Shown here piece by piece: positions 4,501 through 61,895 of a DNA stretch of 64,000 bases. Under the pieces are notes generated by a model, which was not told the DNA's origin, ran no database searches, and was given only the letters and a program-made list of their open reading frames with translations. Made by a program: the position numbers and the translations under genes. This DNA is from Azolla caroliniana. Its lineage: Eukaryota > Plantae > Polypodiophyta. Location of the stretch: the NCBI GenBank assembly GCA_043228905.1, contig JBHGNT010000006.1, positions 17,484,001-17,548,000 on the forward strand. The letters run 5' to 3'. Each line of letters opens with the position of its first letter. The first letter of the stretch is position 1.

Positions 4501-5582
4501 GTTGGATTGCAGAAAATAATATTTTTTAGACCAATTCAACAGTTATCTGCAGCAGAAAGGAGTTCAGAGGGAATTCAGCTGTCGATACACATTAGAACAA
4601 AACGGTGTCGCCAAAAGGAAGAATTGGTCAATTGTGGAGGTGGCATGGGCAATGCTGGAATAGAAGAGCATCCCAAGTTCTATTGGGACGAAGCGGTTCG
4701 GTCGGTTCTCTACATCCAAAACTAGATCAGGAATAAGGTGTCAGCACACGAGCTATATTTTGGGCGGAAGCCAAATTTAAGACACCTTAAGATATTTGGT
4801 AGGATTGCATATGTGCATGTGCCAGATGAGAAATAGAGAAAGCTGGACCCGAAGTCGAAGAAGTGTTATAACCCCTAAACAAAACAAGTTCAAGTAAACT
4901 AAGATGTCGAATTTGATGAGTCAGCATCATGGTACTCTCTCCCAAGTCCAATGTCTAACTCTGATGTCCGACTCCGACCCGACTCTAGAGGCTGAGGCTA
5001 GTAAGCCCGAAACGATCCAAGCAAAAGATGAAGAAGGATTCGGTACTCTAGATGAGAGTCCGATCTCATTCAGGCTAAGTGGGCCACATGAGCGATTGAG
5101 TCGGAATGACTAGTCAGATGAAGAGCCGGTGAGTAGTGGAGACTTGACCGTGCTCTCCCTGCGTAAGGAACCTAGGAGACGAATCACACGCAAGGAAAAG
5201 GGGAAGAAGAAGATGTTGGAATATGCCACCAGTAGAGACGAGTCGGATCGGAGCAAAACCTACTCCGGGAAGAACAAAGACAGACCTTCGGAAGAGAAGT
5301 CTGCGTTGGCCAAGAGGGTGTCAGGGATAGTACTAGAGGAAAGGAGAATTAGTACTAAAGGTAGAGGAGAAGAATGAGGATTAGTACTAAGAAGGGAAAG
5401 AGTGTGTGAGAACCACGTGAGAGGAGAGAGAGAGAGAGAGAGATAATGATGACCACAAGAAGTATAATATATTATAAGAAGAAAGATACAAGAACAACTA
5501 GGAGACTTAAGACTAACGTTGAACCGAATTGGTTCAGAATAATGCCTTTTGCCTCTATTTATAGTGTTGTTGAGATTACTCT

Positions 5583-5602
5583 TGAAGTTTCTAGAATATT
5601 CC
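5583..5602. promoter_or_regulatory. Perfect 4-unit heat-shock element in chromovirus LTR
   Basis: tGAAgtTTCtaGAAtaTTCc, about 20 bp upstream of minus-strand TATAAATA (5556-5563). Confidence 0.75.
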
Positions 5603-5676
5603 AAAGTAATCTAGAATATACATGAATTTCCTATAGAAATAATAAATGAAACTAATATTTTTCGTATTACAATTCA

Positions 5677-5730
5677 TGGTTTAATGGCAAGGGTTTAGCC
5701 AATGTTAGAGAAGGTCATGGGTTTGAATCC
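5677..5730 (+). promoter_or_regulatory. tRNA-like Pol III A-box/B-box module in LTR U3
   Basis: TGGTTTAATGG 5677-5687 and GGTTTGAATCC 5720-5730, start-to-start offset 43 nt. Confidence 0.65.
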
Positions 5731-5805
5731 CTTTGGAGCCATACCATGCCATATCATGACACTACCGAAATCCCTTTGGAGCCAACTTCGTATTCTGGTC
5801 CTGCT

Positions 5806-8800: not shown

Positions 8801-9110
8801 AATGATGCATTTGAATGACTAATCGTACCTGATTAAGGAATCCTCTAAATTGTGATCGTGTTCCATCCAATTTCATAGGAAGGCCAATCTTGGCCTCTTT
8901 ATGAATCCCTTGAGTACTTGATCCTTGTTGTTGCAATGTTACAATGGTTGCTTCAAGTTGTTGCACGCGTACCGCGAACTCCCCATGTTGTTGCTTGCTT
9001 CTTTTCTAAAGAGTTTTGTTGAAGATCCCCCAATAACCGTTGTTTTTCTTGTTCCAATGTGACAAACCTTTCTTTCAAGCACTGCAGCTCCGAGAAAACA
9101 GATTGGTATT
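5806..9110 (-). pseudogene. Chromovirus gag-pol remnants; protease and parts of INT deleted
   Basis: ORF fragments 8181-8522, 8032-8412, 7596-7853, 6903-7106, 6012-6395, 5806-6015; gag stop at ~8032 abuts the RT N-terminal GPIYNLS. Confidence 0.85.
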
Positions 9111-9250
9111 CTTGAGCGCTAATAATTGCCATAATATTAGAGGAAGGAAGGATAAGAAGACTAGTATGAAGGGAAGGCGGGATACGAAGCTAAAGACTCA
9201 AACTGTCAAGGATAGTACTAAGAAGGGAAAGAGTGTGTGAGAACCACGTG

Positions 9251-9287
<37 letters not shown>

Positions 9288-9423
9288 TGATGACAACAAA
9301 AGGTATATTATATTATAAGAAGAAAGATACAAGAACAACTAGGAGGCTTAAGACTGGCGTTGAACCGAATTGGTTTGGAATAATTCCTTTTGCCTCTATT
9401 TATAGTGTTATTAAGATTACTCT

Positions 9424-9443
9424 TGAAGTTTCTAGAATGTTCC
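9424..9443. promoter_or_regulatory. Perfect 4-unit heat-shock element in chromovirus 5' LTR
   Basis: tGAAgtTTCtaGAAtgTTCc. Confidence 0.75.
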
Positions 9444-9517
9444 AGAGTAATCTAGAATATACATGAATTTCCTATAGAAATAATAAATTATAATAATATC
9501 TTTCGTATTACAATTCA

Positions 9518-9571
9518 TGGTTTAATGGGAAGGGTTTAGCCCATGTAACACAAGGTCATGGGTTTGAATCC
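9518..9571 (+). promoter_or_regulatory. tRNA-like Pol III A-box/B-box module in LTR U3
   Basis: TGGTTTAATGG 9518-9528 and GGTTTGAATCC 9561-9571, offset 43. Confidence 0.65.
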
Positions 9572-10248
9572 CTTCGGAGCCATACCATGCCATATCCTGA
9601 GAGAGGGCTGCGAAATCGTCGAATAAGGAATTGTGCCGATCGACCCGCCGAAAAAACCCTGTGAAGAGGTACAAGTACACTTAGTACATGCTGCATCTTT
9701 ATGTGTACATGGTAAAGGTGGCAACCGTGCGTGAGCCGGAGAGCTACGTTGAAGCGGTGAAGGACCCGAACTAGAACAACGCTATGGAGGAAGATATGCA
9801 CGCACTCACGGAGAATGAGATGTGGGATTTAGTGGACATACCGAAATGAGTGAAGCCAATCGGTTTCCGGTGGGGGTACAAGGTTAAATATAACACCGAC
9901 AGCTCCGTCAACTGGTACAAGGCCATGTTAGTGACAAAGGCCTACCCACAACATCACGGCATCGACTACGATGAGACGTTCACGCCAGTCGCAAAGATGA
10001 TGATTGTCCATGTCTTGCTTGCGATGGCAACGACGAAGGGGTGGCTTCTACATAAGATGGATGTTAAAAACGTGTTTCTCCAAGGTGATCTTGATGAACA
10101 GGTGTTTATTATTCAACCCCTGGTTTTCTGTCCGGAATGAATACATCGGTAGTGTGCTGATTGAGGAAGTCCCTATATGAACTTAAGCAAGCCTCGTGTG
10201 CCCGGAACACAAAGACCACGGAGAGACTCCTTCGGATGGGGTTTGCTC

Positions 10249-41988: not shown

Positions 41989-44053
41989 TGTGAGAGAGAT
42001 ACAAAAGGTGTATCAGTTGTAACTGCCTGTTGGCAAAGATATTTAGTAGAAGGTTGTTGCCTCTGTGTCTCCTTTGTATCCTACCTTTCTTCCATAGTGA
42101 TCTAGTTCGGAGTTTGTGGACTCCCGTAATTTTTCCTCTCGAGGTTTTCCACATTAACATACTATGTCGACTTATTCGTGTGTAAGTGTATCAATATTTA
42201 CTTTTTGATTTTGTTTCTTTCATTTTGAGTGTGGAACTCGGTTTTGGCCGAAGGACGATTCCTCACAAACTGGTATCAGAGTGAATTTGTAAACTTCAAA
42301 GAAAATGGAAGACTCATTCGGAGCCATGTTCAAGCTCACCGGCTCCAACTACTCAATTTGGAAGTCAAAGATGAGGGATATGTTGGTGGTTAAAGATCTC
42401 TAGCTACCAGTACATTTGAAGACAAAAGATCAGACAAGATTGATGATGCGACCTGGGAAGTAATGCATATGAAGAAGATGACATATATAAGATTGACATG
42501 AGCCTATAGAATAACTTCAACAAACTGAACAAGGCCGACATCCTTTGGGACAAGATCGACATTATGTTAGAGAACAAAATAACTATGAATGGAGTCTCAG
42601 TATTCCGGAAAATAGTGAGGCTCAGGTATCAAGATGGTGCCAATATGGTAGAGCATACGAATGTTTTCCAGGGGCTAATAAACCAAACTACCTCGCGCGA
42701 AGTACCGCTAGCCAACGAGGTACTGGCATTGTTGCAGCTCGGATCCCCTCTGGATAGTTGGGAGATGTTGGTTGTCACGTTGGGCAACGCCGGACCAGAA
42801 GGGAATAACTTATCCTTGGCAAGAGGGAAATTGAGCTTGCTGAATGAGGAATCTCGTCGAAAGGACCAAGCGTCCAAAACCGACCCGATGGTCTTCGTTA
42901 CCGAAAATGACTCAAATCGGGGAAGAGGCTGGAACAGAAGCTCCTAGAACTGGGAAAAGTCGGAGACGAGGTCGTAGTCAAGGGGGAGGCCCACCTGCTT
43001 CCATTGCGGGAGGTTGGAGCACTTCTAGAAGAATTTCTGACACTTCCGGAAAGTAAAAGGGGGAGCCAATGATTCTGAACGAAAGAAGATTTCGGAAATA
43101 AGAGGAACATCAACAATCACAACAAGTGAAGAGGAACTGCTGCTCATCACCAAGGAGAGTGAGCGACACCTTGTCAACAATGAAATGACGTGGGTGGTCG
43201 ACTCCGGCGCATCGTTTCATCTTACCCCCGAATGGAAATGCTTCTCATCATACAGAGCCAGAGATCACGACCGTGTAAGGATGGGGAATGAGGGATCATG
43301 CCGAATTGTTGACATAGGAGATGTGTGGCTAACAACATCAACCGGGTGTAAGCTGTTGTTGAAAGATGTCTGACATGTTCTGGACGTTCGATTGAACCTT
43401 GTATCAGCTGGTTGACTGGGTGATGAAGGCTACACAGGTAGCATCCAGAATGGCACAATGAAGTTTTTCAGAGGGAGACTGATCATTGCCCATTCCCAGA
43501 AGATCAACACATTGTACCTGATGCATGCCCGGATATGCCGGAAGGAAGTGAATATAGCATCTGACACTGTCCATGAGATTGTTGGGAATCACCTGTTTGA
43601 TTCACCTTCTCCACTCGGCCACAACCGAGTAATCGCGGATCAATGCAGCAGAAAATAGGAAATACAGAGAAAGACGCGATACACAGGGATTAACGTGGAA
43701 AACCCTATACGGGAAAAACCACGGGAGTGCGAGACTCCAAACCAAACTATGCACAGAGAAATATACAATGGCGAGCTGCAAGGCGACGACCTTGAGCTCG
43801 CTGTCCTCGCCACAGGCGGCGGTATTACACAGAGGCGTCGACCTCTTCGTTTCTCTCTCTCTCTCTCTCTCTCTCGGCTGCTCTCACTCTGCTCTCTCTA
43901 CTAGAACATAAAATTAGCAACAACATAAACTATTTGCCCTAAGTCATATTTATACACATATGACTTTCGGGCTATTTACAAATATAGCCTCAAGGGCTCT
44001 TGGCAAACATATTCACAAATATGTCCCCGCATCCGGATCTCTCTCCGGGTACA

Positions 44054-44197
44054 TTCGTCATCCGGCTCCGTGGCCGGGGTCTACATCATCCGGCTCCGTA
44101 ACCGGGTCTTCGTCATCCGGCTCCGTAACCGGGTCTTCGTCATCCGGCTCCGTAACTGGGTACTATTCATCATCCGGTTCCGTAACCGTAACCGGGC
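44054..44197. repeat. 27-bp tandem array in Copia C U3 (second copy at 48841-48984)
   Basis: tcatccggctccgtaaccgggtcttcg, about 5 units. Confidence 0.88.
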
Positions 44198-44261
44198 TTG
44201 CCGTCATTTATCTCCGGGGACATCCCATCCGGAGGGACCGAAATCCCAACAAACTCCCCCT

Positions 44262-47200
44262 TCACTTCGGCATGGGATGTCTCTCCAATCCGATCCTCTT
44301 CCGGCATGCTTCCAGCTTGTCGGGTGTGAGCACCTTGGTCAGCATATCCGACCCGTTCTCGTCCGTGTGGATCTTTGTCAGCACGAACTCCTTGTCTTCT
44401 ATCCTTTCCCGGATCCAGTGATATCTTCGCTGGATGTGCTTCGTCCGGGAGTGATAGGCCGCGTTCTTCGCAAGGTGGATTGCACTTTGACTGTCGCAGT
44501 AGAGTCGGTACTCCTCCTGCCGGATACCAAGCTCTCTAATGAAGTCCTTCATCCATATTATTTCCTTGCCGGCTTCAACAGCCGCCATGTACTCCGCCTC
44601 CGTGGTTGACAGCGCAACCGTCTTCTGCAGCCTCGACTGCCACGAAACGGCTCCCCCTGCATAGGTCATCACATACCCTGATGTGGACCGGCTGGTATCT
44701 GCATCAGCCGACATATCCGAATCGGTGAAGCCGTCGAGTTCGGGCTTACCGGAGCCGAATCGGAGGCATACGTTTGCCGTGCCCTTCAGGTATCGGAGTA
44801 TCCACTTGACCGCGTTCCAATGCTCTTTGCCGGGATTGCTCATGTACCGGCTCACCACTCCGACTGCATATCCGATGTCCGGTCTCGTACACACCATGGC
44901 GTACATCAAGCTCCCGACGGCTGAGGCATACGGCACTTTCATCATATCCTCCTTTTCAGCCTTTGTCTTGGGGCTTTGCTTGCTGGACAGCTTGCAGTTT
45001 GCTGGGAGGGTCGATCCGACCGGTCTTGCCTCCGACATGTTGAACCGGTGAAGCACCTTCGTTACGTACTTCTCCTGTGACAGCCACAACTGCTTCTTCT
45101 TCCGGTCCCGGATGATGTGCATCCCTAATATTTGCCTCGCCTGACCTAGGTCCTTCATTGAGAAGGTTCGGTGAAGAGCCTTCTTCAGCATCCGTATCTT
45201 GACCTGGTCCCGTCCGACGATCAACATGTCGTCCACGTACAGGAGGAGTATTAGAAAGTCTCCTCCTTCGAACTTCTTCACAAACACGCAGTGGTCGGAC
45301 TGCGTTTTGAGGTACCCTTCGTCGGTCATGAAGGAGTCGAACTTCCGGTACCATTGCCGGGGAGCCTGCTTCAGTCCGTAAAGGCTCTTCTTCAACCGGC
45401 ATACCAGGTGCTCCTTCCCTTTCTTCTCGAATCCTTCCGGTTGCTGCATGTATATCTCTTCTTCGAGGTCACCGTGAAGGAATGCCGTCTTCACGTCCAT
45501 CTGTTCTACCTCGAGGTCCATGCTTGCCGCTATGCTCAGCACCGTCCGAATGGAGGTCATCTTCACTACCGGGGCGAATATCTCGTCGAAGTCGACGCCC
45601 TTCTTCTGCTGGAACCCCTTCACCACGATCCTGGCTTTGTATCTCGAGGGGTTTCCGGCATCTCCCGGTTTCAGCTTGAACACCCACTTGTTTCGAAGTG
45701 CCCGCTTTCCTTTCGGCAACTCCACAAGTTCATATGTGTGGTTCTCATGCAGGGAATCCATCTCGTCCTGCATGGCACTCAACCACCTGCGGCTCTTGGT
45801 GTCATGCTTTGCTTCTTCAAAGCTCTCCGGCTCCCCCTCGTCGGTTAGCAGCACGTGCTCTGGTTCCGGAAATCTCCGGGGGGCCCTTCTCTCTCTTAGA
45901 GGATATCTCCGTTCCGGAGCTTCGGTAACCGGTTCTTCCGATTCTTCTTCATCCGAATCCATTTCGGGATCGGGACCGGTTCCGGTATCATTTTCATCTT
46001 CTTCGGCCGGTTCTGTTTCTTCACCGTCTTCGGCCGGATCCTCGAGTGCTAACCGGTCCCTTGCCGGTCGGGACTGCTCCTCGTAGAGTTGATCCTCACC
46101 GGTCGACTTGGAGCTCTTCATCTTCTTCTCCGACTCCCAGTCGGCGAGTGTCTTGTCCTCCATGAAGATGATGTCTCGACTCCTGAATATCTTCTTGTCG
46201 ACCGGGTCCCATACTCGGTAGCCGAACTCATCGTTGCCGTAACCGAGGAATATGCATGGCCGGGTCTTTGGATCTAGCTTTCCTCTCCGGTCCTTTGCCA
46301 CATGCACGTATGCGAGACACCCGAACACCTTCAGATGCCGGTAGGACACTTCCTTACCGGTCCACACTTTCTGCGGCGTGTCTCCGTCCAAAGGTACTGA
46401 GGGTGATCTGTTTATCACGTATGTCGCCGTCGACATTGCCTCAGCCCAAAACCCCTTGGGTAATTTTGCATGCGCCAGCATACTCCGGACCCTCTCCATT
46501 ATGGTCCGGTTCATCCTCTCGGCCAGCCCGTTCAGTTCCGGCGTCTTCGGCACAGTAAACTCAAGCCGGATTCCCTTCGAGCGACAGTACTCCTGGAACT
46601 GCCCCCGGTATTCCCCTCCGTTATCCGCTCGTATCGCTTTCAGCTTCTTGCCGGATTCTCTTTCCACTCTCGCGTGGAGTTCTTTGAAGACGGACAATAC
46701 TTGGTCCTTTGTCTTCAACGGTGCCGTCCACAGCTTCCGGCTGTGGTCATCAATGAATGTCACGAAGTACTGGGCTCCGCCATGTGACTTCGTTTCTACT
46801 TGACACACATCAGTGTGCACCAACTCCAATGGTGCACTACGTCTCGTCGGTGGCCTTGAGTGGAAGGAGGCTCGGTTCTGCTTACCGGCCAGGCAATCGG
46901 TGCACTTCTCCAGATGCACATGCTTCACTGGAATGAGGTTGTCTTCTGCAAGCCTCTTCATCCCCTTCTCACTCATGTGGCACAGTCTCTTGTGCCACAG
47001 CTCACCGGCAGTGTCGGCTGCCACGTTCAACTCTTCCGGACATAACCGGGCATTCATCAGGTACAGTGTGTTGTCTTTCCGGGCCCGAGCCACTATCAGG
47101 CTCCCCTTGCTGAACTTCATTACGCCGTTCCGGATGCTACCTGTGTAGCCTTCATCGTCTAGCCTCCCGGCCGAGATCAGGTTCAATCGAACCTCCGGAA

Positions 47201-48335
47201 CGTGTCGGACATCCTTCAGCAGCATTTTGCATCCGGTCGGGGTTGTCAACCACACGTCTCCGATGCCGGCAATCCGGCACGTACCTTCATTTCCCATCCG
47301 AACACAGCCATGCTCACCGGCTGTGTAGGATGAAAAGTATCTTCTTTCCGGGGTCAGGTGGAACGACGCTCCGGAATCGACCACCCAGGTCATCTCTTCA
47401 CCGGCAAGGTTTAGCTCCCTCTCTTCGGTAATGAGCATTATCTCTTCTTCACTTGCCGCGAGTGCCGTCGTTCCTTTCCGGTCCTGCCCTCGCCGATCCG
47501 GACCTCTCCGGTCCGTGGCTCCCCGGTATGCACCGTTTCTCTCCGGTGACTTCTTCGAATCGGTGTCGTCGGCTCCGTTGTCTTTTCGGTAATGCCGACA
47601 ATTCTTCCGGAAGTGCCCCGGCTTCCCACAGTGGAAGCATGTGGGCCTTCCTCTTGACTGCGACCGGGTCCCCGACTTCTCCCGTCTTTGCGGACTCCGG
47701 TTCCATTGTCTTCCCCGATCCGATTCGGTAAGCAGCGCTTTTGGGTCGGAGGCCGGTTCTTTATCTCTCCGACGCGCTTCTTCGTTCAAAATACTTGTCT
47801 TTACCGTTTGTAGAGACAAGTTATCTTCGGTGCAGGAGGTGCTGAGAGTCACCACCAAGTTCTCCCAACTTTCCGGCAATGTACACATCAAGATGATGGC
47901 TTGCATTGCATCCTCCAACGGGAACTTGATTGCCGCAAGCTGGTTCACGAATCCCATGAACGTGCTTACGTGTTCCACCATGCTCTCGCCGTCCCGGTAC
48001 TTGAGGTTCACTATCTTCCTCATCAGGGAGGTCCGGTTCAACGCATTCTTCCTCTCGTAGAGGCCCGACAGCTTCCGCCACATCTCGTATGCGTTGGTGT
48101 CGTTCGCCACATGTTGTAGAACGCTCACGTCGACGTATTGCCGAATGGTTGCAACGGCTTTCCGGTTCAGAAGCCTCCATTCCGTCTCAAGTACCCCCTT
48201 CGGTATTTCCGACCTGTCAATCGGTTCGTACAGGTCCCGAACAATCAGAAGATCCTCCATCTTGATCTTCCAGTCGGCGTAGTTCTGCGCATTCAGCACC
48301 ATCATCCCCGGCTGCCCGCTGCTGCCGCCTTCCAT
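44262..48335 (-). CDS. Copia (Tnt1/Tork-like) Gag-Pol polyprotein, ~1357 aa from the first ATG after the PBS
   Basis: CFHCGKPGHFRKNC, WVVDSGASFH, WHKRLCH..CTDC, VHTDVC/RADNGGEY/NGLAER, QMDVKTAF, YVDDML, FTDSD/TEAEY/YCDSQSA all intact. Confidence 0.97.
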   Translation of the reverse strand: MEGGSSGQPGMMVLNAQNYADWKIKMEDLLIVRDLYEPIDRSEIPKGVLETEWRLLNRKAVATIRQYVDVSVLQHVANDTNAYEMWRKLSGLYERKNALNRTSLMRKIVNLKYRDGESMVEHVSTFMGFVNQLAAIKFPLEDAMQAIILMCTLPESWENLVVTLSTSCTEDNLSLQTVKTSILNEEARRRDKEPASDPKALLTESDRGRQWNRSPQRREKSGTRSQSRGRPTCFHCGKPGHFRKNCRHYRKDNGADDTDSKKSPERNGAYRGATDRRGPDRRGQDRKGTTALAASEEEIMLITEERELNLAGEEMTWVVDSGASFHLTPERRYFSSYTAGEHGCVRMGNEGTCRIAGIGDVWLTTPTGCKMLLKDVRHVPEVRLNLISAGRLDDEGYTGSIRNGVMKFSKGSLIVARARKDNTLYLMNARLCPEELNVAADTAGELWHKRLCHMSEKGMKRLAEDNLIPVKHVHLEKCTDCLAGKQNRASFHSRPPTRRSAPLELVHTDVCQVETKSHGGAQYFVTFIDDHSRKLWTAPLKTKDQVLSVFKELHARVERESGKKLKAIRADNGGEYRGQFQEYCRSKGIRLEFTVPKTPELNGLAERMNRTIMERVRSMLAHAKLPKGFWAEAMSTATYVINRSPSVPLDGDTPQKVWTGKEVSYRHLKVFGCLAYVHVAKDRRGKLDPKTRPCIFLGYGNDEFGYRVWDPVDKKIFRSRDIIFMEDKTLADWESEKKMKSSKSTGEDQLYEEQSRPARDRLALEDPAEDGEETEPAEEDENDTGTGPDPEMDSDEEESEEPVTEAPERRYPLRERRAPRRFPEPEHVLLTDEGEPESFEEAKHDTKSRRWLSAMQDEMDSLHENHTYELVELPKGKRALRNKWVFKLKPGDAGNPSRYKARIVVKGFQQKKGVDFDEIFAPVVKMTSIRTVLSIAASMDLEVEQMDVKTAFLHGDLEEEIYMQQPEGFEKKGKEHLVCRLKKSLYGLKQAPRQWYRKFDSFMTDEGYLKTQSDHCVFVKKFEGGDFLILLLYVDDMLIVGRDQVKIRMLKKALHRTFSMKDLGQARQILGMHIIRDRKKKQLWLSQEKYVTKVLHRFNMSEARPVGSTLPANCKLSSKQSPKTKAEKEDMMKVPYASAVGSLMYAMVCTRPDIGYAVGVVSRYMSNPGKEHWNAVKWILRYLKGTANVCLRFGSGKPELDGFTDSDMSADADTSRSTSGYVMTYAGGAVSWQSRLQKTVALSTTEAEYMAAVEAGKEIIWMKDFIRELGIRQEEYRLYCDSQSAIHLAKNAAYHSRTKHIQRRYHWIRERIEDKEFVLTKIHTDENGSDMLTKVLTPDKLEACRKRIGLERHPMPK

Positions 48336-51300
48336 TTTCTGCACTGCCGTCGCTCTGATACCAGTTTGTTGGGAATCACCTGTTTGATTCACCTTCTCCA
48401 CTCGGCCACAACCGAGTAATCGCGGATCAATGCAGCAGAAAATAGGAAATACAGAGAAAGACGCGATACACAGGGATTAACGTGGAAAACCCTATACGGG
48501 AAAAACCACGGGAGTGCGAGACTCCAAACCAAACTATGCACAGAGAAATATACAATGGCGAGCTGCAAGGCGACGACCTTGAGCTCGCTGTCCTCGCCAC
48601 AGGCGGCGGTATTACACAGAGGCGTCGACCTCTTCGTTTCTCTCTCTCTCTCTCTCTCTCTCGGCTGCTCTCACTCTGCTCTCTCTACTAGAACATAAAA
48701 TTAGCAACAACATAAACTATTTGCCCTAAGTCATATTTATACACATATGACTTTCGGGCTATTTACAAATATAGCCTCAAGGGCTCTTGGCAAACATATT
48801 CACAAATATGTCCCCGCATCCGGATCTCTCTCCGGGTACATTCGTCATCCGGCTCCGTGGCCGGGGTCTACATCATCTGGCTCCGTAACCGGGTCTTCGT
48901 CATCCGGCTCCGTAACCGGGTCTTCGTCATCCGGCTCCGTAACTGGGTACTATTCATCATCCGGTTCCGTAACCGTAACCGGGCTTGCCGTCATTTATCT
49001 CCGGGGACATCCCATCCGGAGGGACCGAAATCCCAACAGAGATGTGGCAGAAGAGGTTGTGTCACATAAGCGAGAAGGGGATGCAAAGACTTGGTGAAAA
49101 TAACCTCATTCTAGAGGTGAAAAACATGCAGCTTGAGAAGTGCACCGATTTCTTGGCCAGGAAGCAGAACAAAACCTCTTTCCGGTCGAGACCATCAATG
49201 ATACGGAAGGCACCACATGAACTCATGCATACTGATGTATGCTCCAAGCAAAGGAAGTCACGTGCCGGATCGGAGTACTTCGTGACTTTCATAGATGACG
49301 ACAACCGGAAGTTGTGGGTCTCCACGCTGAAAACGAAGGACCAAGTATTGTCCGTCTTCATGGAGTTTCATGCGAGAGTAGAAAGAGAAACCAGCCGGAA
49401 ACTGAAAATAGTTTGAGAGGAAAATAGAGGTGAATACCGAGGGCAGTTCGAGGAGTACAACTAGTCGAAGGGAATCCAGCTCGAGTACTCCGTGCTGAAG
49501 ATGCCAGAGCTTAACGGGTTGTCCAAGAGAATGAACTGGATCGTAATGGAGAGAATCTAGAGTATGCTTGCACATGCCATGTTGTCCAAGACGTTATAGC
49601 CAGTGACGTTGTCGTGCCTTTCGACGCTGGATCGTTGCGTGAGTCGGGAGGGAACTATTGGGGTTTTGGACTAGGAGGAGACGAATTTCTTAGACAGATA
49701 GGAATGTGAATAGATTGCAGGAATGAGATAGAAATTGGTGAATCCCATGAATATAGTGAATTAGTTTAACTTGATATTTAAAATCATAGTAATAAATTGA
49801 AATAGTTTAGAATAGATTAGAGTAGATTGAGAGAAGAGATTAAAATTTGTGAATCCCACAAGTATTATATTAAACAAGTAATATTTTCTTCTTTATCTTT
49901 ATCTTTATTGAATCGGGTACTCCGTACATATTTCACGTAATGTACAAAGTACACTACGACACTCACCCCCTCCGAACTTACACATCCTCCGATATGTGCC
50001 GAAGTTTCCGATACTTTTTACTCTTCTTCATCCGTAGCTCCCTCTATCTCTTCCGCTATGTTGATTATTAATTCTAGCCCACTTTCTTCGTTTTCTGCAC
50101 TTCCACGGTCCTTGTCCAATTGGTCCTCTGTGTCGGTTTTGTCCAAGATTACGTAGGGTTTGACATCACTTCACATCTTAAAAATCTTCACCAGCTTCCC
50201 CGCTATATGCACTCAAAGTATTGTTCCATCTAGCTCACTTAGCCGGTAAGTTCCGTTGTCAAATGTTTTTCGAACCTCGTATGGTCCGAACCATCGTTGA
50301 GTGAATTTCCATATCATTTGGTATTGATGATCCAAACTATTTTCATAGACTATCACCCAATCTCCTTCTTTAATATTGCGTGATCGTAGACTATGCTTTG
50401 TGTCAAATTGACTTTTCTTCTGGAATTGCGCTTCTTGTTGTCGGTGTATTGCTTTCGCTATGTCTTCAGGTCTTCCTTCTAACTGTCATATTCGAACTGC
50501 TAGTAGTTCTTCCTGACTCATCTCTTCCTTCCATGGTAGCACTATCCACGTTGCAATTGCGGTTTCCGTAGGCATTACCGAAGAATTCCCTAGCTCTATC
50601 GGAGTCATGTTCTCCCAAATCCGCAATTACTTGTCCTACGCACCTGTACCTACAAAACACTTCTTCCAAGAGAAATTGGCATACTACAGAACATGTTTTC
50701 ATCCATAGTGCCAAACCTTCTACTTGGTTTGACAGATCCCGGTTGGCATGGCCACGATGTCGACCATCCACTTAAAGTTGATTCTTGGTGAAAATGTCAG
50801 ATGTAATTCGTCCCGCTGTCGAACTCTGGAGTAGATCTGACATCTTTCAGTGAACTCCACTATATCCTTGTACATATTCTTCCACCAATATTTTTGTTTG
50901 ATCTTTGCAAATGTCGCCCGTGTTCCTTGATGTCCAACTCAATCAGATTCGTGAAATTCGGATATTACTTGTTTCTGTTGTTCCTTTGTGATGACTACCC
51001 GGATTGGTATGTTCGGTCTTTTCGGCTCCTTCCAGATTAAACCATTGTTCAAAAAGTACTTCTGAACTTGTCGTTTCTTCCTTCGGATCTTAGATCTCTT
51101 TTCCTTATTGTCCGGTTATTCCTCGATTTCTTGTAGCACTTTCCCAATCAACAAGATTTCTCCCTCGTATTCTTCTTCCTAGAACTCCCGAATTACGTTC
51201 ACTCGGTATATGTGCTACGAAGTAAAGTAGTCTTCCAAAACTTCTTCATTATTTGATTCGGCTACGTCATCTTCGAACCGTGCCCTTGGAAACATATCCG

Positions 51301-52099
51301 CTACCGCGTTGTCTTTTCTCGAGATGTGTCGGACCTCCGAATTAAGTGACTTTACATATGCAATCCATCTTAGCATAGCCATATTCGGTACCGTGCAACA
51401 TCGCATCATCCCAAGTATCGGAAGACAATCTGTTTCAATTACTTCAGCTCCGATCAAATAATCTGAATCCGATTTTATTACCAACAGGACTCCCCATAAT
51501 TCTCTTTTAATTTTTGCATTTCCACATTTCCTTTCGTTGAGAACCTTTGCTCCGAATTGAATCGGATATCATGAACCATCTGAGTCGGCTTGGTTGATGA
51601 CCCATCCGATCCCAGTTGGACTCGTATCTACCGTTACTATGATCGGTCTACCATAGTTCGACTTCTTAAGCGCAACCGCCCTCTGAAGTGCTTTCTTAAG
51701 CTTCCTCGCAACTTTGGTGTGCTCCAGATTCCATTCAAACTTCTTCCCCTTCCGCAACAGGTGATAGAGTGAGTCCACAATGTGTGCATAGGGCGGAATC
51801 CATATATGATAGAATGCACATGCCCCAAGGAACCTACGAACCTCAGATTGTGACTCGCATATTTCTTTCATGGCTTGAATCGCATCGATCTTGACTGGTG
51901 ACGGTCTTCCGTTGTAGGGCCCACATAGATGTCCGACGACCAATATCTCTTTTTGTCCGAATGCCGATTTCTCTCTAGAGAGTGTTATGTGCACATCTTC
52001 TAACCTTTGTAGCACTTTCTCACAATCGCGAATATGGGCTACAAACTTTCAGCATCCTCAATCATCCGTGTCATGATATAGCATGGTATGGCATTAAAA

Positions 52100-52153
52100 G
52101 GATTTGAACCCATGACCTTGTGTAACATGGGTTGAAGCCCTGCCATTAAGCTA
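52100..52153 (-). promoter_or_regulatory. tRNA-like Pol III A-box/B-box module in solo LTR
   Basis: Minus strand TAGCTTAATGG (52153-52143) and GGTTCAAATCC (52110-52100), offset 43. Confidence 0.68.
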
Positions 52154-52229
52154 TACATTGTTATACAAAAAATATTGTTTTCATTTATTATTGCACTATA
52201 GAAAATTGATGTATATTCTAGATTTATCT

Positions 52230-52249
52230 GGAACATTCTAGAAACTTCA
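52230..52249. promoter_or_regulatory. Perfect 4-unit heat-shock element
   Basis: gGAAcaTTCtaGAAacTTCa upstream of TATAAAAA (~52269). Confidence 0.75.
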
Positions 52250-53917
52250 GGAGTACTCCTGACAACACTATAAAAAGAGGCACAAAGCATTATTTCGAAC
52301 CAATTCGGTTCAACGCTAGTCTTAAGCCTCCTAGCTATTCTTGTACTTTTCATATAATATATCACCTGCTATCATCATTCTCTCTCTCTCTCTCATGAGT
52401 CTTACACACTCCCTTCCTCTTAGTACTAATCCTCATAGTACTTTCCTTCTCTGGTACTAATTCTCTCTCTATTTTTAGTACTATTCATGACAATCCGTAG
52501 TCTGATCCTTCTCTTCCATCACACATCCTTTCATTGGAATGTCATCTAAGAACGACATCGTTATCTCTAGAATGCAGTCTTGGAGCACCTTGTTCATCGC
52601 ATTCGTCATATGTGTGATTGAGTCTGCCGCTCCTTGTGGTTGCGTACACATCCGGACTAATCCTATCGGTGTCCGCATTGTAGTGATATCTTGGCAATCC
52701 ATGACTAGTGGAAATTGGTCATATCCAGAGTATAGGTCTCTGATAGGGTATATCGCATGTCCAGGAAATGCTTCTGAAAATTCATCCACTATCGGATCGT
52801 GACCTTGTTCACCCATTGCAACTCCTAAATGAACTGGAGTGACCCATTCTTCTTCGGAACCGTAAACCATCGATTTGAGTACGGAGCATTTGATGGCTCT
52901 AGAATCCCCATTGCCACCTTCTCCTTGAGCAAGTCAATGATTTTCGGAATATGCACCTGTGGCACCGGAATCGGCTTCAGGTTCCATGGCACATGTTCAA
53001 TCATGAAGATCACCATTGGCTCCACTATCTTCGGATCAAAGGACCCTATCTCTCTTGTTGTGAATGCAAATGCTTTTCCATGCTGCTCCAGCATCTCACG
53101 GAATCATTCTTTTTCATTCGGTAAGAGGAACCCATCTCCACTAATTCGGAGTTTCTTCTGGGTCTCATTCATGAAGGTATGTCCGATATCCACGGATTTT
53201 CGAAGTGTCGGATCTCCTAAGACTTCTTTCCTCTTTTGCTCACTATCGGCGTTTAACGGTCCCGGAGACGGTTTCACCTTCTTTCCCACAGTCTTGTATT
53301 CCATACATACCATTGCTTCTTCTTTGCGGAGCACATACGACCCCATTTCCGCATGATCTCGTATATCTCGGCCGATTCCACCAGAACTACCTGGTCTCCC
53401 AGGCTATTCTCTTTTGCAAGCTCTTCAAGCCATTTTAGCGTGCTTCCATAGAACATTTCTTCGATTACTCCCATGATTTCTTCGTCTTCTTTTATGATTG
53501 ATGCAGACGGTAGCTCATCCTGCATCTTCCAAAGTTCTTTCTTCTTTTCTTCGGTCACGGCCATGTATGTAGATGCACCATACATACTTATTCACACTTG
53601 TTTCACTCCGGGAGTTTTCTTCCTATGTGGGGTATCAGAACTTCGGGGACTATCCCTTGCTCACTCCGCAACAATGCACTTTAAAAATCCATTTCTTTTT
53701 GGGAAAAGAGCTCTCTCTTGTTGCTTTCTTGATTCGATGGCACAGTTAGGAATTGAACAGTTTTGCTTCTGCATTAAACACCTTTGATTCCATCCGCAAA
53801 GCCGTGATAAAGGGTTGCGCGAGTATTACGGAATGTGAGACCTCATCTTGCGCGAATAATTTTTTATCAATCTCCAAATCTCTGATCTTTACCATCACAT
53901 TTGGACAAGCTGCAAAT

Positions 53918-55385: not shown

Positions 55386-55403
55386 CCACGACACCCACCC
55401 CCT

Positions 55404-58400
55404 CTAAACTTGCACATTGGTTGTGCAGAGTTCATCCAACACTTCTTCCGATTCTTTTAGTTCTTCTATTTCTTCATAAAATTCGGGCTCTAATGACTCC
55501 CTCATTTTAAATATTTTAATCCTTTTTCCTGCAATTGGGATACGAATTTCTGTCCCATCTAATTCATTGAGGAAATATGTGGCTTTATTTGTTATTTTCC
55601 TAACTTCATAAGGTCCAAACCATCTTTTTGCAAACTTCCGAATAGTACTGTATTGATTATCTAGGCTACTATCATATACTAATATCCAATCTCCCTCTTG
55701 CACCTTTCTTGGTCGTATTCTTTTCATCTTGTCAAATCTGTCCTTATTCTTGATTCTTGCCTCTTTCAATCTAGTAGCTGCTTTTTCTATGTCTTCTATC
55801 CTTGATTGAAGTTGTCGTATTCGAACTGCAAGTAAATCTTCCCTACTCATTTCCGATTCCCGAGGCAACACAGCCCATGTAGTTATCTTTTCTTCAATTG
55901 GCATTATTGGCTTCTGTCCTGTGATTAATTCTGCAGGCATATATCCAGTAACAGTGCTGTGAGTTGTCCTATCAGCCCATAGTGCATAGGGTAAGGTTTT
56001 TGGCCAATCACTAACCCCTCCTCTACATGCCTTTGCCAAAGCTTTGACTATTGGCCCATGTCCCCTTTCTACCTTTCCATTAGCTTCTGGATTGTATGTT
56101 GTTGTCAAAGAAAGCCGAATTCCTATTTTGTCGAAAAAATCTTGAGCTTCCGCAGAATTGAGTTCTCCCCTATCTGCCACTATCTTCCCGATACATCCAT
56201 ATCTACAAACAATGTCCTCCAAGATGAATTGACATACTCCTAATGTCCCTTTTGTTCGCAATGAACGGCCTTCCACTTGATTTGTTAGATCTTCTCTAGC
56301 AAGAACCAAGTATCTCTTTTGTCCTACTCCAAGTGGCATTGTTACCAAATCTATCATCCACTTGTAATGCACCCCCCGGTGAGTATGTTGGGTGTAATTC
56401 ATCACAAAATTTTACGTTTGAATAATATTGACAAGTGGGACAAGTTTCCACATACTTTTTTATTTGCTCATAGTATCGACACCACCAAAATCGTTCTTTA
56501 ATCTTATTGAAAGTGGCCCACACTCCTCGATGACCAGCCCATTCTTTGTCATGCAGCTCTCTGATTATCTCCTTTCTTTGCCCTTCGAAACCTATTACTC
56601 TTTGTGGGTTTCCAGTATTGGTTTTCGGATGTCACCATAGATATCCTTCATGCAAGAAGAACTTATGGGCTTTCTTGCGAAACTGTGCGAACTCTTTTCT
56701 AGATCGACCTTTGTACTTGTTAGGGATTTGTAGGTATTTCCCTATTTCCTTGAATTCTTCTTCATACTCCTCTTCTAGAAACTGCATTCCTCCTTCCCGG
56801 GTAATGCTTGTGGTAAGGACTGTTTGTTCTTTGTCCTCATCGTCCGAGTCTGGAATCTCCTCTTCCTCATACCTTGCTCTTGATAACATATCTGCTACTG
56901 CATTTCTATTCCCAGAGATATGTCGAACTTCAGGGTTGACTGATCTAATATAGATACACCATCTTAACATGGCTTGATCTGGAATATCACAATTAGCTAT
57001 GATACCAAGAATAGGCAAACAATCTGTTTCTAATATTACTTCAGCACCAATTAAGTAATCTCTGTCTGTCTTTACTGCTGTTACTATCCCCCATAGCTCT
57101 CGTTTCACCTGTGCATATTTTCTTTGTCGACCACTAAGAACCTTTGCTCCGAATCAGAGTGGATACCTTTCTTCCCCATCTTGTTGGCTTATCACCCATC
57201 CAATTCCAATGGGACTAGAGTCTACTGTGAGATATATGGGTCGGGTGTAGTCAGGTTGCTTTAATGGTGGAGCTTTCGCTAAGTAGTACTTCAATTTCTT
57301 CATTGCCTCTGAATGCTCTTCACTCCATTCAAATATCTCTCCTTTTCTTAGGAGTCTATATAAAGGTTCAGATAAATGGGCATAATGTGGAATCCATTTA
57401 CAGTAAAAAACACATACCCCCAAAAACCTTCGTACTTATGAGACGGATGTACATTCCTCTTGCATATTTTGAATTGCATTGACCTTGGTTGGGGATGGAT
57501 TTCTCCCGTATGGGCCACACATATGACCAACTATTAATATCTCTTTTGCCCCAAATATTGACTTCACACCTGATAAGGTCAAATGCACTTCTTCCATCCT
57601 TGATAGCACCTTCTCACAATCCTTGATATGATCAACAACAAATTGACGGCAACCACTTTCGTCCAATTCCTCGTTCTTCTCTTCCTCCTTGCATCCCTTA
57701 ATTGGAACATCATCTAGAAAAGGCATTGTAATATGAGGAATAAAATCACGAAGGACCTTGTTCATTCCATTCATCATATGCGCCACTGAGTTAGTCGCTC
57801 CTTGCGGCAAGGTGCACATCCGTACTAACCCTATAGGTGTCTTGATAGAAGTTATATCTTGACTTTTGATAGCAAGTTGAAATTGATCATACCCGGAATA
57901 AAGGTCTCCCATTGAATATATAGCTCTTCCTGCAAACATCTCAGCAAACTCATCCACAATTGGCCCTACTCCCGAGTTTCGGATTGTTACCTTATTCACG
58001 GGTTGCATATCTTGGATAAATCGGAGTCGCCCATCTTTCTTTAACACAATGAACCATCGACTCGAGTAAGGAGCGTTCGATGGTTCCAAGATACCCATCC
58101 TTATCTTTTCTTTCAAAAGTTCTAATAGTTGAGGGATTCTAGCCCTAGGCATGGGTATTGGCTTAAAGTTCCATGGAATATGAGGGATAGTGAATATAAC
58201 CATGGGCTCCACAATTTCTGGATCCACACACCCTATTTCCTCTGGTTGGAATGTGAATGCCTTTCCATGCCTTTTTAACATCTCCCTGAACTGCTTTTCT
58301 TCAGCGGGTAATAGGAAGTCACCCCCTCCTATTTTCATCCCTTGTATTGTTTCCGGAGTAAACACATGTCCTACCTTTCGTGGGTCTCTGATCATTGGCT

Positions 58401-58851
58401 CTGTGGCTGCTTCTTTGATTGCCTTTTCACTATCCCCTGGAAGTGGAGCAGCAATAGGACGAACCTTCTTCTCCATTGTCTTGTATTTTGTTAGTACATG
58501 TGCTTCATGATCCTTTCGAGCAACTTCTTCAATGACCTCGTACATCTTGATTGAATGGACAGGAACTTGGATTTCGTTGTCTTCTTCAATTGCTTCCAAA
58601 TGAGTTATTGTATCTTCAAAACTTAATTCTTCAAACATATCCTGAATTTCTTCATCATCCTCTATTAATCCAGAACACTTAAAGTACTCGAAAGCAGTTT
58701 GTATTTTATTATTATTTACTTTTAGTATAAAAGTAGCACCATTAGATGAGATTGTACAAGGAATATCTTTATTTACATTATTATTTATGGGGTTTTCTTT
58801 TATGTTCGGGCTATCACAACCCCTACCTGTAAAAGCCCTATCTAAAAATCC
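55404..58851 (-). pseudogene. P1 pol (RT-RH-INT) with a few frameshifts and stops
   Basis: DLYSGYDQF, FLDDVP, VDSSPIG, ETDCLP, H..GHRG..CPTC, VADRGE, NGKVER, WFGPY. Confidence 0.92.
58789..58851 (-). other. Predicted -1 ribosomal frameshift signal (G GAT TTT plus stem-loop/pseudoknot)
   Basis: 0 frame reads CAG GAT TTT TAG; the -1 frame is open from here into pol (MFEELS); hairpin begins 6 nt downstream. Confidence 0.72.
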
Positions 58852-60956
58852 TGGGAAAACTCTTCATCCATCTCTTGAATTCGATGTTCCCTGAAGCATT
58901 CTTTGTTTCTTTCATGGTTGGGCTTCACAGTTAAGAATTGGACAGTATTTCTTCCATCTTGACTCTTGATTCTCGTGAAAGCCGAACCATCATCAATAAC
59001 CTTTGTTTCCATCCTCACTGCGGTGATGTAGGGCTGACCAAGGATGACGGGGTAGGTCGATCGATCCTGCACAAAGAAATTTTGATTCACCGAGACATCA
59101 CCAATTGTTACCTTCATACTAGGACATGCTCCGAATAGATCCTCCGTAGTTTCTGTGGCAGCTCTTATTTTCCACCCATGATTCTTGTCGATCGGTCACT
59201 GTCCTCGAGCGTAAAATTCCGATGACATCATGTTAATCTCGGATCCATGATCGATCAAAGCAATACATGGAATTTGTTGCTCCCCAATTTTTGCACGTGC
59301 CTCCGTTGTTGCTCGAGCCCAATGGTCCTTTGTATAGTGACTCCTATCCCCTTCATGAACACCAACATCATTCTGGTTTTTAACACTTGCAGCATTGATG
59401 GTGCCACCATACAAATCTTGGAGTTTTGTTGCACACCCTCCCGTAATTTCCTCCGTGACCTGTCTCTTCCTTCTAATAATATCTATGATAACTTCATGAA
59501 ATTCTTTCTTTGCTATACCCAACACTTCTCTTAAAGTAAATTCTACCTTACTATTTAATATTCTTGTTTCTAGTACCTTTTTTATATCCGTCATTGTTTC
59601 TATGTCCGAGGCAAACTTGAAAGATGGGCCTGTCTTTCCTTTTACTTTATCAGCTTCCTTCGGCTCAGTAGCAACCTTTTCCATCTCCCTTCTCTTTTGT
59701 TCTCGTGTCTCATGTCTCTTTGTTGGATCAGCTTCCTCAGCTCTCTTCCGCTTCTCTTCCACTAGCACATCTTGTGCATTCACTTGGGCGAATGCTGATA
59801 GCGCGTCTACTGGATCATTCCATCCAGTGAAGTTTCGTATTTCATCTCCCGCTCTTTTTAATTCATCCACTTGAACCTTCCCTTTCATTGCATAATCCAT
59901 CACATCTTGCCAAAACCCAGATCCACCATATGAGTCTTCTACGCGCAATCCTAAGGTTGCCACGGATTGTATCGCTTGAGTTGTTTCTCTCTCAACATCT
60001 TCCATTAGCTTTTTCATTCCTCCTCGCTCGAAATTGAGTTGAAGTGGTTGTCGAGTCTCTGTTGAGTGAATCTTGCCATCTTGATAGTAGATTTTATTAT
60101 GATTAAGAGCATCCCTATGCTCTTGACAATCTTTCTTCTGGTGGTCGATACTATCACACCACATACACCTTCAGACCATTCCACCTCCCTACCTTGATGA
60201 AGTCGAGCTTTGTCCCGATTCTAGCTTCGTCACTTTGATTGACAAGTCTTTCATACCTTTCACCAATTCGTGTAAGAGTGATTCTTCTACTTTCTTTTCT
60301 CCTGACTCGTTCCCTATTTCTTCATCATTTCTGTCGGGCAACTCCATAAACCATAACCTTCTTTTGCATAAATGGGCGCACGCCCTTTTCACCTCCTCCC
60401 AATCTTCGGTAAGTCCACTTGGACTATTCTGATCTTCTAAAAGCATTCCCAAGTCCTTCTTGTCTTTAATATTAGTAGCTTGTAGAAACAATATTACTTT
60501 ATCTGGCACTATTATATTTCTATCTCTAACATTTAGTTGCTCAAATCTTTCAGAAAACTCTTCTAATACTTCCAAAACACTTAAATGTTTATTAGACTCT
60601 ACCCAATCCATGAAAGCTCACCTTGTCATCCTTGACATATTGTTGAGGTTGTATTCATTGAGTAATGCCCTTTCGAATGTTGTCCATGTCTGATTCTCCC
60701 TTTGGAGCTCTTGGATCCTCTCTTCTAGCCCAATCGCAGCGACTCGACTAAAGCTATTAATTTTTGTAGCTTCGTCGACACCACGTTTAAGCATTTCTTC
60801 ATTATAAATCTTCAGAAATCTTGTTAAATTTATACCTTCGAAGATTCCTACTCGTGCGAGAATATTGTCGACGGCTTTGTCGATGCTTGCCATCATCCCT
60901 TGTTCCCGCATCACTCGTTCCATCATCGTACACATAAGCCTCATTTGCTCCTCCAT
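58842..60956 (-). pseudogene. P1 gag-protease ORF with in-frame stops
   Basis: C-MWCDSIDHQKKDC knuckle, ALIDHGSEIN protease, VILGQPY. Confidence 0.88.
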
Positions 60957-60973: not shown

Positions 60974-60991
60974 TTCACGTCGGGTTTACCA
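60974..60991 (-). other. Primer-binding site complementary to the tRNA-Trp 3' end
   Basis: TGGTAAACCCGACGTGAA versus recalled plant tRNA-Trp complement TGGTGAACCCGACGTGA. Confidence 0.75.
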
Positions 60992-61099
60992 AATGTGTCG
61001 GGGTAGTTGTGGTTCGTGCGGCGAAGTCGAGGGGACTAAGGTTAAGGGGAGTTGAAGAAACTTAAGTTTTAATAAGGCTTGTATGGTTAAGGATAGAAT

Positions 61100-61100
<1 letters not shown>

Positions 61101-61134
<34 letters not shown>

Positions 61135-61240
61135 AACGAGCATAGATAAAAGATAGAGACAATGTATGATTCAAGAAAGAAGATTGAGACAAAGTATGAT
61201 TCTAGAAAGAAGATTGAGACAAAGTATGATTCAAAGAACA
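61101..61240. repeat. (GT)n(GA)n microsatellite and 30-bp tandem repeat in the P1 LTR
   Basis: gacaa(t/a)gtatgattc(a/t)agaaagaagattga, about 2.7 copies. Confidence 0.8.
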
Positions 61241-61337
61241 AGAGTATATGATATAAACATGATGTATATTAAAAATATAATATTTTACCAACTTTACAAT
61301 CCTTGATCGCAAGATGAATCTTTTCAATACCGACCCT

Positions 61338-61850
61338 TGATTTGAACCCTCGACCTCAACTTCGAAACGAGAGGTTCTCCACCCAATGAGCTAGTCTTCT
61401 TTACTTGATTGTATTATTTTTCATCTCTCCCTTGATTTCCTTTGTTTCCCTTGCCCCTCTTTTTATAAGTGTTGTCATGCATATGGTAATGTATGGGAGC
61501 ATGGCATGCATGCAATGCATGAGTTACATGTAATGCATGATCGCCATTTGGCGCACATGTATTGCACGTGATGCATGGTAGCCATCATGCTGACTTGAGC
61601 TCCCATGTATGAAAATAGATATGGGATAAGTATAATGATGAAAATGCATTCTAAAATAACTAACCTAGCTTAGTGGTGTATACTTTGTGTTTGGCATACA
61701 AAGTTGAGAGTTCAAGTCCCTCAATTTTACTTAATACAATATATAGCTTCATTCTTATATCATGAAGCACATTTACACTTTTACAAATAAATAGCCTAGC
61801 CTAGTGGTATGTACATTGTACTTCGTATATAAGGGTGTGGGTTCAAGTCT
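61338..61850. promoter_or_regulatory. Three tRNA-like A-box/B-box modules in the P1 LTR
   Basis: (-) TAGCTCATTGG 61393-61383 / GGTTCAAATCA 61348-61338; (+) TAGCTTAGTGG 61666 / AGTTCAAGTCC 61709; (+) TAGCCTAGTGG 61797 / GGTTCAAGTCT 61840. Confidence 0.7.
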
Positions 61851-61895
61851 CTCAAATATTATTAAATACAACATTGAAGCACAATATTCACGACA

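Follow-up and report, generated by a model that had tools for sequence, protein, structure and literature searches.

The window, the 64,000-nt stretch of Azolla caroliniana DNA analysed here, is a nest of Copia and Gypsy retrotransposons, in which the Gypsy element P1 lies on the minus strand and spans ~6.5 kb in total. Its broken gag-pol region (55404..60170, minus strand) holds DUF4100, RT, RNase H and integrase domains in the Gypsy order. The 5' LTR (60996..61895, minus strand; 900 bp, TGTCG...CGACA) runs from 61895, where it begins with TGTCG, to 60996, and its outer boundary is marked by loose contig ends at 61896. A 4-nt spacer separates it from the primer binding site (PBS), which starts at 60991 (60974..60991, minus strand), is of the same type as in related loci and is presumably of the tRNA-Trp type. 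At the other end of the element, the polypurine tract and a 3' LTR reduced to a 7-nt remnant (55387..55405, minus strand) are followed by chromovirus-like internal sequence. P1 is a high-copy element: each of four runs gave over 1100 contigs matching it. The named relatives of its RT and integrase come from liverworts and ferns (45-75% identity), and the viral collection held no relative of its integrase. Phygy has been described as a non-chromovirus Gypsy lineage having a compact gag-pol, a tRNA-type PBS, relatives in liverworts and ferns and a preference for NCGN targets (PMC6317226). P1 resembles it in its compact gag-pol, tRNA-type PBS, liverwort and fern relatives and NCGN-fitting flank, the 5' flank terminating in GCGT (one site, the 3' side being lost), and we refer to it as Phygy-like, a putative lineage label.

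Three A-box/B-box modules in the P1 LTR

The original prediction placed three A-box/B-box modules in this LTR, and every coordinate and offset was confirmed. Two of them lie in U3, antisense to the element and facing outward, each with an offset of 43 between the boxes: the distal module (61797..61850, plus strand) has box A TAGCCTAGTGG at 61797 and box B GGTTCAAGTCT at 61840, and the proximal module (61666..61719, plus strand) has box A TAGCTTAGTGG at 61666 and box B AGTTCAAGTCC at 61709. The third, a sense module (61338..61393, minus strand), consists of box A TAGCTCATTGG at 61393, an AGGT and box B GGTTCAAATCA at 61348-61338, with an offset of 45. At 61460..61467 (minus strand), the sequence TATAAAAA with a purine run after it marks a putative Pol II TATA box. 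Relative to this site, the A box of the distal module is located 330 nt upstream, with no TTTT up to the LTR end, and that of the proximal module 199 nt upstream, with a TTTT 5 nt past box B; the sense module begins 74 nt downstream, with a T5 run 62 nt past box B, in the position and the opposite orientation that had been claimed for it. The scan, which used a textbook consensus with at most one mismatch per box and offsets of 42-46, gave three box pairs in the P1 LTR; 1000 dinucleotide shuffles averaged 0.011 pairs, and not one of them had as many as two.

The two outward modules are one duplicated unit, not independent modules: they form a tandem duplication with 77% identity over 90 nt. 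The claim that the sequence between the boxes differs stood insofar as only 21/32 positions there are identical, and fell short in that the outward pair is such a duplicate. The sense module is the weakest of the three; its box B ends in CA, and its counterpart in L001, the closest relative, is more degenerate. Between the proximal module and the TATA box lies a U3 block rich in CATG/TGCA (61476..61640, minus strand), and seven CATGCA/TGCATG hexamers, which we take to be RY-like, are found in the P1 U3, chiefly in this interval. Among related families, L029 has eight such hexamers and L008 and L018 have 3-5, with no significant association between hexamers and module presence. Neither ARAGORN nor the Rfam gathering score identified a tRNA gene in the P1 LTR, where no tRNA match appeared even at E<=10, and together they found zero tRNAs across the window and 40 of 85 related loci.

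Other copies of the P1 family carry the modules as well, with contigs from three organisms spanning both U3 modules, and the absence from other copies that had been proposed as a possible outcome did not occur. In these copies, 36 positions are commonly variable, 3/44 in boxes, 20/64 between boxes and 13/120 in the flanks. The boxes vary less than the inter-box sequence (p=0.003), the variation of which is possibly inflated by cross-mapping between the two duplicates, and the difference between boxes and all non-box positions (3/44 vs 33/184) is not significant (p=0.10). The three box variants comprise two at degenerate positions and one change toward the consensus. Furthermore, contig joints that skip or repeat one U3 unit suggest that the unit number varies within the family, and 1-9% of the contigs on the module region continue into unlike sequence.

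Occurrence and conservation of the modules among Phygy-like families

To survey related elements, we used an integrase alignment of 39 proteins and took the best 80 of 413 confirmed metagenome stretches, which fell into 27 families at 80% nucleotide identity (20 testable and 7 untestable). LTRs were delimited by the polypurine tract and the PBS; where the far end was unknown, up to 1100 nt were taken, some flank included, and LTR pieces shorter than 150 nt were dropped from the leave-family-out scan. The contigs are metagenome assemblies of repeats, some of them possibly chimeric. With the leave-family-out matrices, 68,379 bp of delimited LTR yielded 33 modules, a count that includes the three P1 modules and redundant copies. 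The 20 shuffled sets averaged 0.35 modules each, and the internal sequence (234,657 bp) had none; the alternative of an equal frequency in shuffled or non-LTR sequence is thereby refuted. When offsets of 25-110 were allowed, 33 of 55 pairs fell at 43-45 and every other offset occurred at most twice. Outside the delimited LTRs, five weak matches were found in 341,002 bp.

The modules are thus LTR-borne and extend beyond P1 to many other Phygy-like families, 11 of the 20 testable ones scoring positive among the best 80 of 413 loci. One positive is doubtful: the module counted for L026 probably sits in a P1-like LTR nested at +128, or the contig is chimeric, so that solid positive families number ten. 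The other 9/20 families were scored negative, and the cassette is optional among Phygy-like families. One of the negatives, the P1 sister family L002/L003, has two sense modules downstream of the TATA box with an offset of 47-48 and a weak box A (L003 3' LTR, 578-790; L002 5' LTR). In the 3' LTRs of L008 and L036, the AGGT/box B half is duplicated alone, 45 and 28 nt after the first copy. In L046 (11870-12100), a degenerate offset-43 module at 12069 occurs in a repeat inserted into a Copia RT region; this repeat may belong to a third lineage of LTRs or be SINE-like. Four Phygy-like loci in two bacterial genome assemblies (L082-L085, one weak match) are likely plant contamination and were excluded from all counts.

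Conservation was read from 18 non-redundant modules, whose inter-box sequences have a mean identity of 46%. Information peaks at box A, at a TA after box A, at AGGT 8-5 nt before box B and at box B. The AGGT, which was absent from the search criteria, matches at 67/72 positions, and we take it to be the tRNA variable-loop motif. Meanwhile, the tRNA stems pair at chance level against a null of permuted partners in these 18 modules: 19/54 paired for the T-stem (null 21.4), 37/72 for the D-stem (40.1), 52/90 for the anticodon stem (54.0) and 53/126 for the acceptor stem (48.3), and register shifts of the T-stem from -2 to +2 all gave chance values. The expectation that no cloverleaf forms in the modules was therefore borne out, and with neither ARAGORN nor the Rfam gathering score giving a match, a functional tRNA gene is ruled out. 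Since the promoter part is kept and the RNA fold is lost, which neutral decay of a tRNA would not separate, this pattern argues for selection on the boxes. In ten homologous module pairs the gap is small, with boxes differing at 40/220 positions (18%) and inter-box sequence at 61/253 (24%); AGGT differs at 4/40 (p=0.063).

A TTTT is found within 40 nt downstream in 11/18 modules against a background of 24% (p=0.0007), an excess that is not significant when local T-richness is kept (8.3 expected, p=0.11). Downstream T-runs behind a promoter are what would be expected if the modules were Pol III genes whose short RNA (~80-130 nt) functions as a decoy or a small-RNA source. Foamy viruses offer a precedent, having Pol III miRNA cassettes with A/B boxes and terminators in the LTR (in U3 in the bovine virus), the deletion of which lowers replication (PMC3993851, PMC7693620). 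Over the 18 modules, folding is also slightly stronger on average than in shuffles (mean z -0.87, s.e. 0.25), and one chromovirus copy described below (52075-52165) folds well (z -3.6). However, folding of the two P1 U3 modules is no stronger than that of their shuffles (z +0.36 and +0.49), no stable hairpin precursor ending at a terminator was found in the set, and neither a conserved RNA sequence nor a common stem was seen. The terminator distance also ranges from 5 to 175 nt, with none for the distal P1 module. We consider a functional short RNA distinctly unlikely. The autonomous, A/B-box-bearing LTRs of foamy viruses are like those described here, but the viral units encode a structured miRNA precursor that acts in trans, whereas the plant modules keep a tRNA-like motif at a fixed spacing with no conserved RNA structure found.

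Position, apparent U3 exchange and the chromovirus-type LTRs

Antisense U3 modules are present in 9/11 positive families, and the other two have sense modules only. The arrangement does not suit Pol III transcription of the element itself, with antisense modules in these nine families and sense modules that reach a TTTT within 14-110 nt. Over 8 families, box A of the nearest antisense module is found 179+/-33 nt upstream of the TATA box, a distance that varies less than the one to the start of the LTR (249+/-84 nt; F-test p=0.013), in a comparison where TATA boxes were chosen by eye and the families have U3 blocks in common. The original prediction described the P1 modules as a divergent bracket around the Pol II promoter. 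This holds for P1, and the two-antisense, one-sense bracket is seen again in L008/L018, where the integrase has 71% identity with that of P1 and the LTR has only 23-26 nt patches in common with the P1 LTR, but the bracket is not the rule, most module-bearing families having a single upstream module. U3 units are duplicated in P1 and in L018.

On an integrase tree of 55 rows, from which 27/80 loci were left out for a short integrase or too little LTR, module presence needs eight changes. P1 and the distant family L029 have the U3 block of the 61476..61640 region in common (81% over 110 nt) with integrases 67% identical, whereas L029 and L021, with integrases 89% identical, have only 32 nt of LTR in common. 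From the likeness of the P1/L029 block and the mismatch of the L029/L021 LTRs we infer exchange of U3 between families, and U3 blocks appear, from these comparisons, to have been swapped between Phygy-like families.

This patchiness, the occurrence of both orientations and the lack of a module in the close relatives L021, L033 and the window element P2 would also be expected if the modules were neutral relics, heads of tRNA-derived SINEs or alike, hitchhiking on exchanged U3 blocks. SINE heads likewise retain boxes and spacing while losing the stems, as the LTR modules do, and one module is inside the L046 repeat at 12069. An origin by SINE insertion has been proposed for the tRNA-like LTRs of Helenus (PMC10886601). 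The modules resemble tRNA-derived SINEs in having degenerate A/B boxes without a cloverleaf, but the 18 modules have no common body or tail 3' of box B, the 20 columns there holding at most 0.43 bits of information, and almost all matches are in LTRs, with the five weak ones in 341,002 bp as the only matches outside delimited LTRs and none outside LTRs in the window. Just 1-9% of the contigs on the P1 module region run into unlike sequence, and many separate SINE families would be required, each inserted near a TATA box. A neutral relic seems unlikely to us, though a dispersed SINE family matching the modules may exist beyond the sequences scanned.

A weight-matrix scan of the whole window found six modules, three in the P1 LTR and three in chromovirus-type LTRs (5677, 9518 and 52153), with no match outside LTRs. 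A chromovirus-type solo LTR with the target duplication ATCCG (52069..52492, plus strand) has an antisense module at 52153-52100 with an offset of 43, 116 nt upstream of the TATA box; the 3' LTR (5319..5761, minus strand) and 5' LTR (9204..9602, minus strand) of a chromovirus-type element have antisense modules at 5677-5730 and 9518-9571. In these LTRs the module lies 114-116 nt from the TATA box. A chromovirus copy scored 17.8 bits against the Rfam tRNA model, for which the cut-off is 29. The lineage is represented by these three LTR copies, all from the window; no further chromovirus LTR was found by pattern in 81 loci, BLAST gave one LTR end only, and the chromovirus integrase query returned one irrelevant match from the viral collection. 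The element at 5319-9602 has the target duplication CCCTC and no polypurine tract directly before its 3' LTR, where a 15-nt LTR stretch is repeated, and the end of its internal region therefore looks deleted. Elsewhere in the window, a second Phygy-like element has a 3' LTR (49606-49961) of a short form without the module, whereas its closest relatives (L035, L038, L043 and L048) have the module. Two Copia elements (43576-49038 and 10249-15621) have open 1404-aa and 1346-aa frames and LTR pairs 99.7% and 98.0% identical, which points to recent insertions; the window scan found no modules in their LTRs.

The chromovirus and Phygy-like modules have little in common beyond the boxes and AGGT. The solo LTR and P1 have 21/22 nt in common around the TATA box (52260-52280 and 61456-61477; E=0.014), which may reflect chance, convergence or a former exchange of LTRs. 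Convergent recruitment of modules in the two lineages, as originally suggested, may have occurred, their modules being alike in so little, but U3 blocks appear mobile, the tree needs eight changes and only three chromovirus LTRs are at hand.

The chromovirus LTRs carry the module without a tRNA primer site. In a related element adjoining L001, the PBS is complementary to a part of the LTR ~33 nt below the TATA box, which indicates probable self-priming, and self-priming has been reported for Tcn1 (PMC6317226). This bears on the idea that antisense modules make the genomic RNA complementary to the D/T loops of the primer tRNA and so aid reverse transcription. Ty3 has a bipartite primer site, and the antisense U3 position that such annealing needs is the commonest arrangement (9/11 positive families). 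Against it, the sequence 3' of box B differs from the primer 3' end read from the PBS, and the two families with sense modules only do not fit; comparison of this primer 3' end with the viral collection gave 31 matches, none a tRNA. Because the chromovirus family appears self-primed yet carries the module, we rejected primer annealing as the main role and regard it as scarcely credible.

Possible role and relation to known systems

We tentatively favor, at a little short of an even chance, the reading in which the cassettes in coding Gypsy LTRs are DNA-level type 2 Pol III promoters that act in cis on the Pol II promoter. TFIIIC would bind boxes A and B and load TFIIIB, which an antisense module would position between itself and the TATA box, and the bound TFIIIB would leave the Pol II promoter of the element itself within a patch poor in nucleosomes. 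Pol III transcripts, short and ending in T-runs, would be a by-product, the boxes would be under selection, and module-bearing U3 blocks would spread between families by recombination. In fungi and animals, the promoters of tRNA genes serve as barriers in chromatin. A review of tDNA and TFIIIC insulators describes nucleosome-poor surroundings and insulator activity for tRNA genes (PMC11346459). The modules are like these insulators in being A/B-box DNA, their nucleosome-poor insulating role being putative and drawn by analogy, and differ in lying within a plant LTR, whereas the known insulators are host tRNA genes and B-box sites (PMC11346459). Pol III promoters tolerate a wide A-B spacing (PMC12498455), so TFIIIC binding alone does not account for the fixed 43 nt. 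In a broader version, autonomous Gypsy elements of non-seed plants would have co-opted a tRNA promoter as a portable anti-silencing cassette. It would sit roughly a nucleosome's length upstream of the TATA box, in some cases as a duplicate or with a partner module downstream, would pass between Phygy families on U3 blocks and would have been acquired independently by a chromovirus lineage. We regard this version as conceivable but doubtful.

If such a cassette shielded the promoter from methylation, a trace might be expected in the sequence. Inside the bracket of four LTRs, we counted 8 CG against 38 expected, compared with 79 against 81 outside. In the stretch before the TATA box, families with modules have less CHG than those without (0.22 in 10 families vs 0.63 in 6; p=0.026 in one of five tests made without correction). 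By this indirect proxy, a sequence trace of methylation protection inside the bracket is absent, CG being depleted and not preserved, and the depletion gives no support for a simple methylation barrier. The CG and CHG depletion would suit a promoter that is methylated no less than one that is protected, and may reflect either heavy methylation or selection shedding methylatable sites. TFIIIC binding is impaired by methylation (PMC11346459).

The modules could instead be landing pads, if integrase were guided to Pol III complexes and module-bearing LTRs attracted insertions. In yeast, the integration of Ty1 and Ty3 is guided to Pol III complexes. Phygy is often nested in Tcn1 elements in Physcomitrella (PMC6911290), but at the junctions examined here, P1 interrupts a Copia RT and the solo LTR a Gypsy RT region, both of them coding sequence with no module nearby, and the preference reported for Phygy is for NCGN (PMC6317226). 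We hold this to be highly improbable.

The nearest plant counterpart is Helenus, which forms TRIMp3 with Cassandra and Ajax and whose LTRs resemble tRNA, with conservation of box A (TRGCY, YGG) and box B (GGTTC) and mostly no functional tRNA (PMC10886601). LTRs of the P1 type share the likeness to tRNA and the conservation of both boxes. Unlike the non-coding Helenus elements (311-1263 bp), however, the hosts here code for gag-pol and have a TATA box, all 80 loci having been found by their integrase, and whereas Pol III is proposed to transcribe Helenus, the present modules are mostly antisense, can be multiple and are followed by T-runs. We therefore rejected membership in Helenus/TRIMp3 for P1, a ~6.5 kb gag-pol element with mostly antisense modules. 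In the same study, autonomous partners are argued to need Pol II and not to have the TRIMp3 LTR, and 'not a few' Repbase LTRs are said to match tRNA, with only TRIMs followed up there (PMC10886601); some module LTRs may therefore already be flagged in Repbase or in the supplement of that study. The available text of the Phygy description has no mention of Pol III modules in the LTR (PMC6317226), and the full-text literature, a coverage that leaves out most subscription journals, yielded no account of such modules in the LTRs of Phygy, Tcn1 or other coding plant elements. The modules are thus apparently a lineage-wide LTR feature that has not been described so far. As a sequence pattern the feature is solid, and its functional role is a candidate one.

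One practical consequence is that LTRs will turn up when these genomes are searched for SINEs or tRNA pseudogenes. In the single study of tRNA-like LTRs that we found, they are treated as promoters of tiny non-coding elements (PMC10886601). If selection maintains the modules beside the Pol II promoter of coding plant retrotransposons, they would counter silencing in cis and supply these genomes with TFIIIC sites in high copy number. If true, this would permit a direct test of tDNA-type insulation in plants, in which sister families with and without the module would serve as natural controls.
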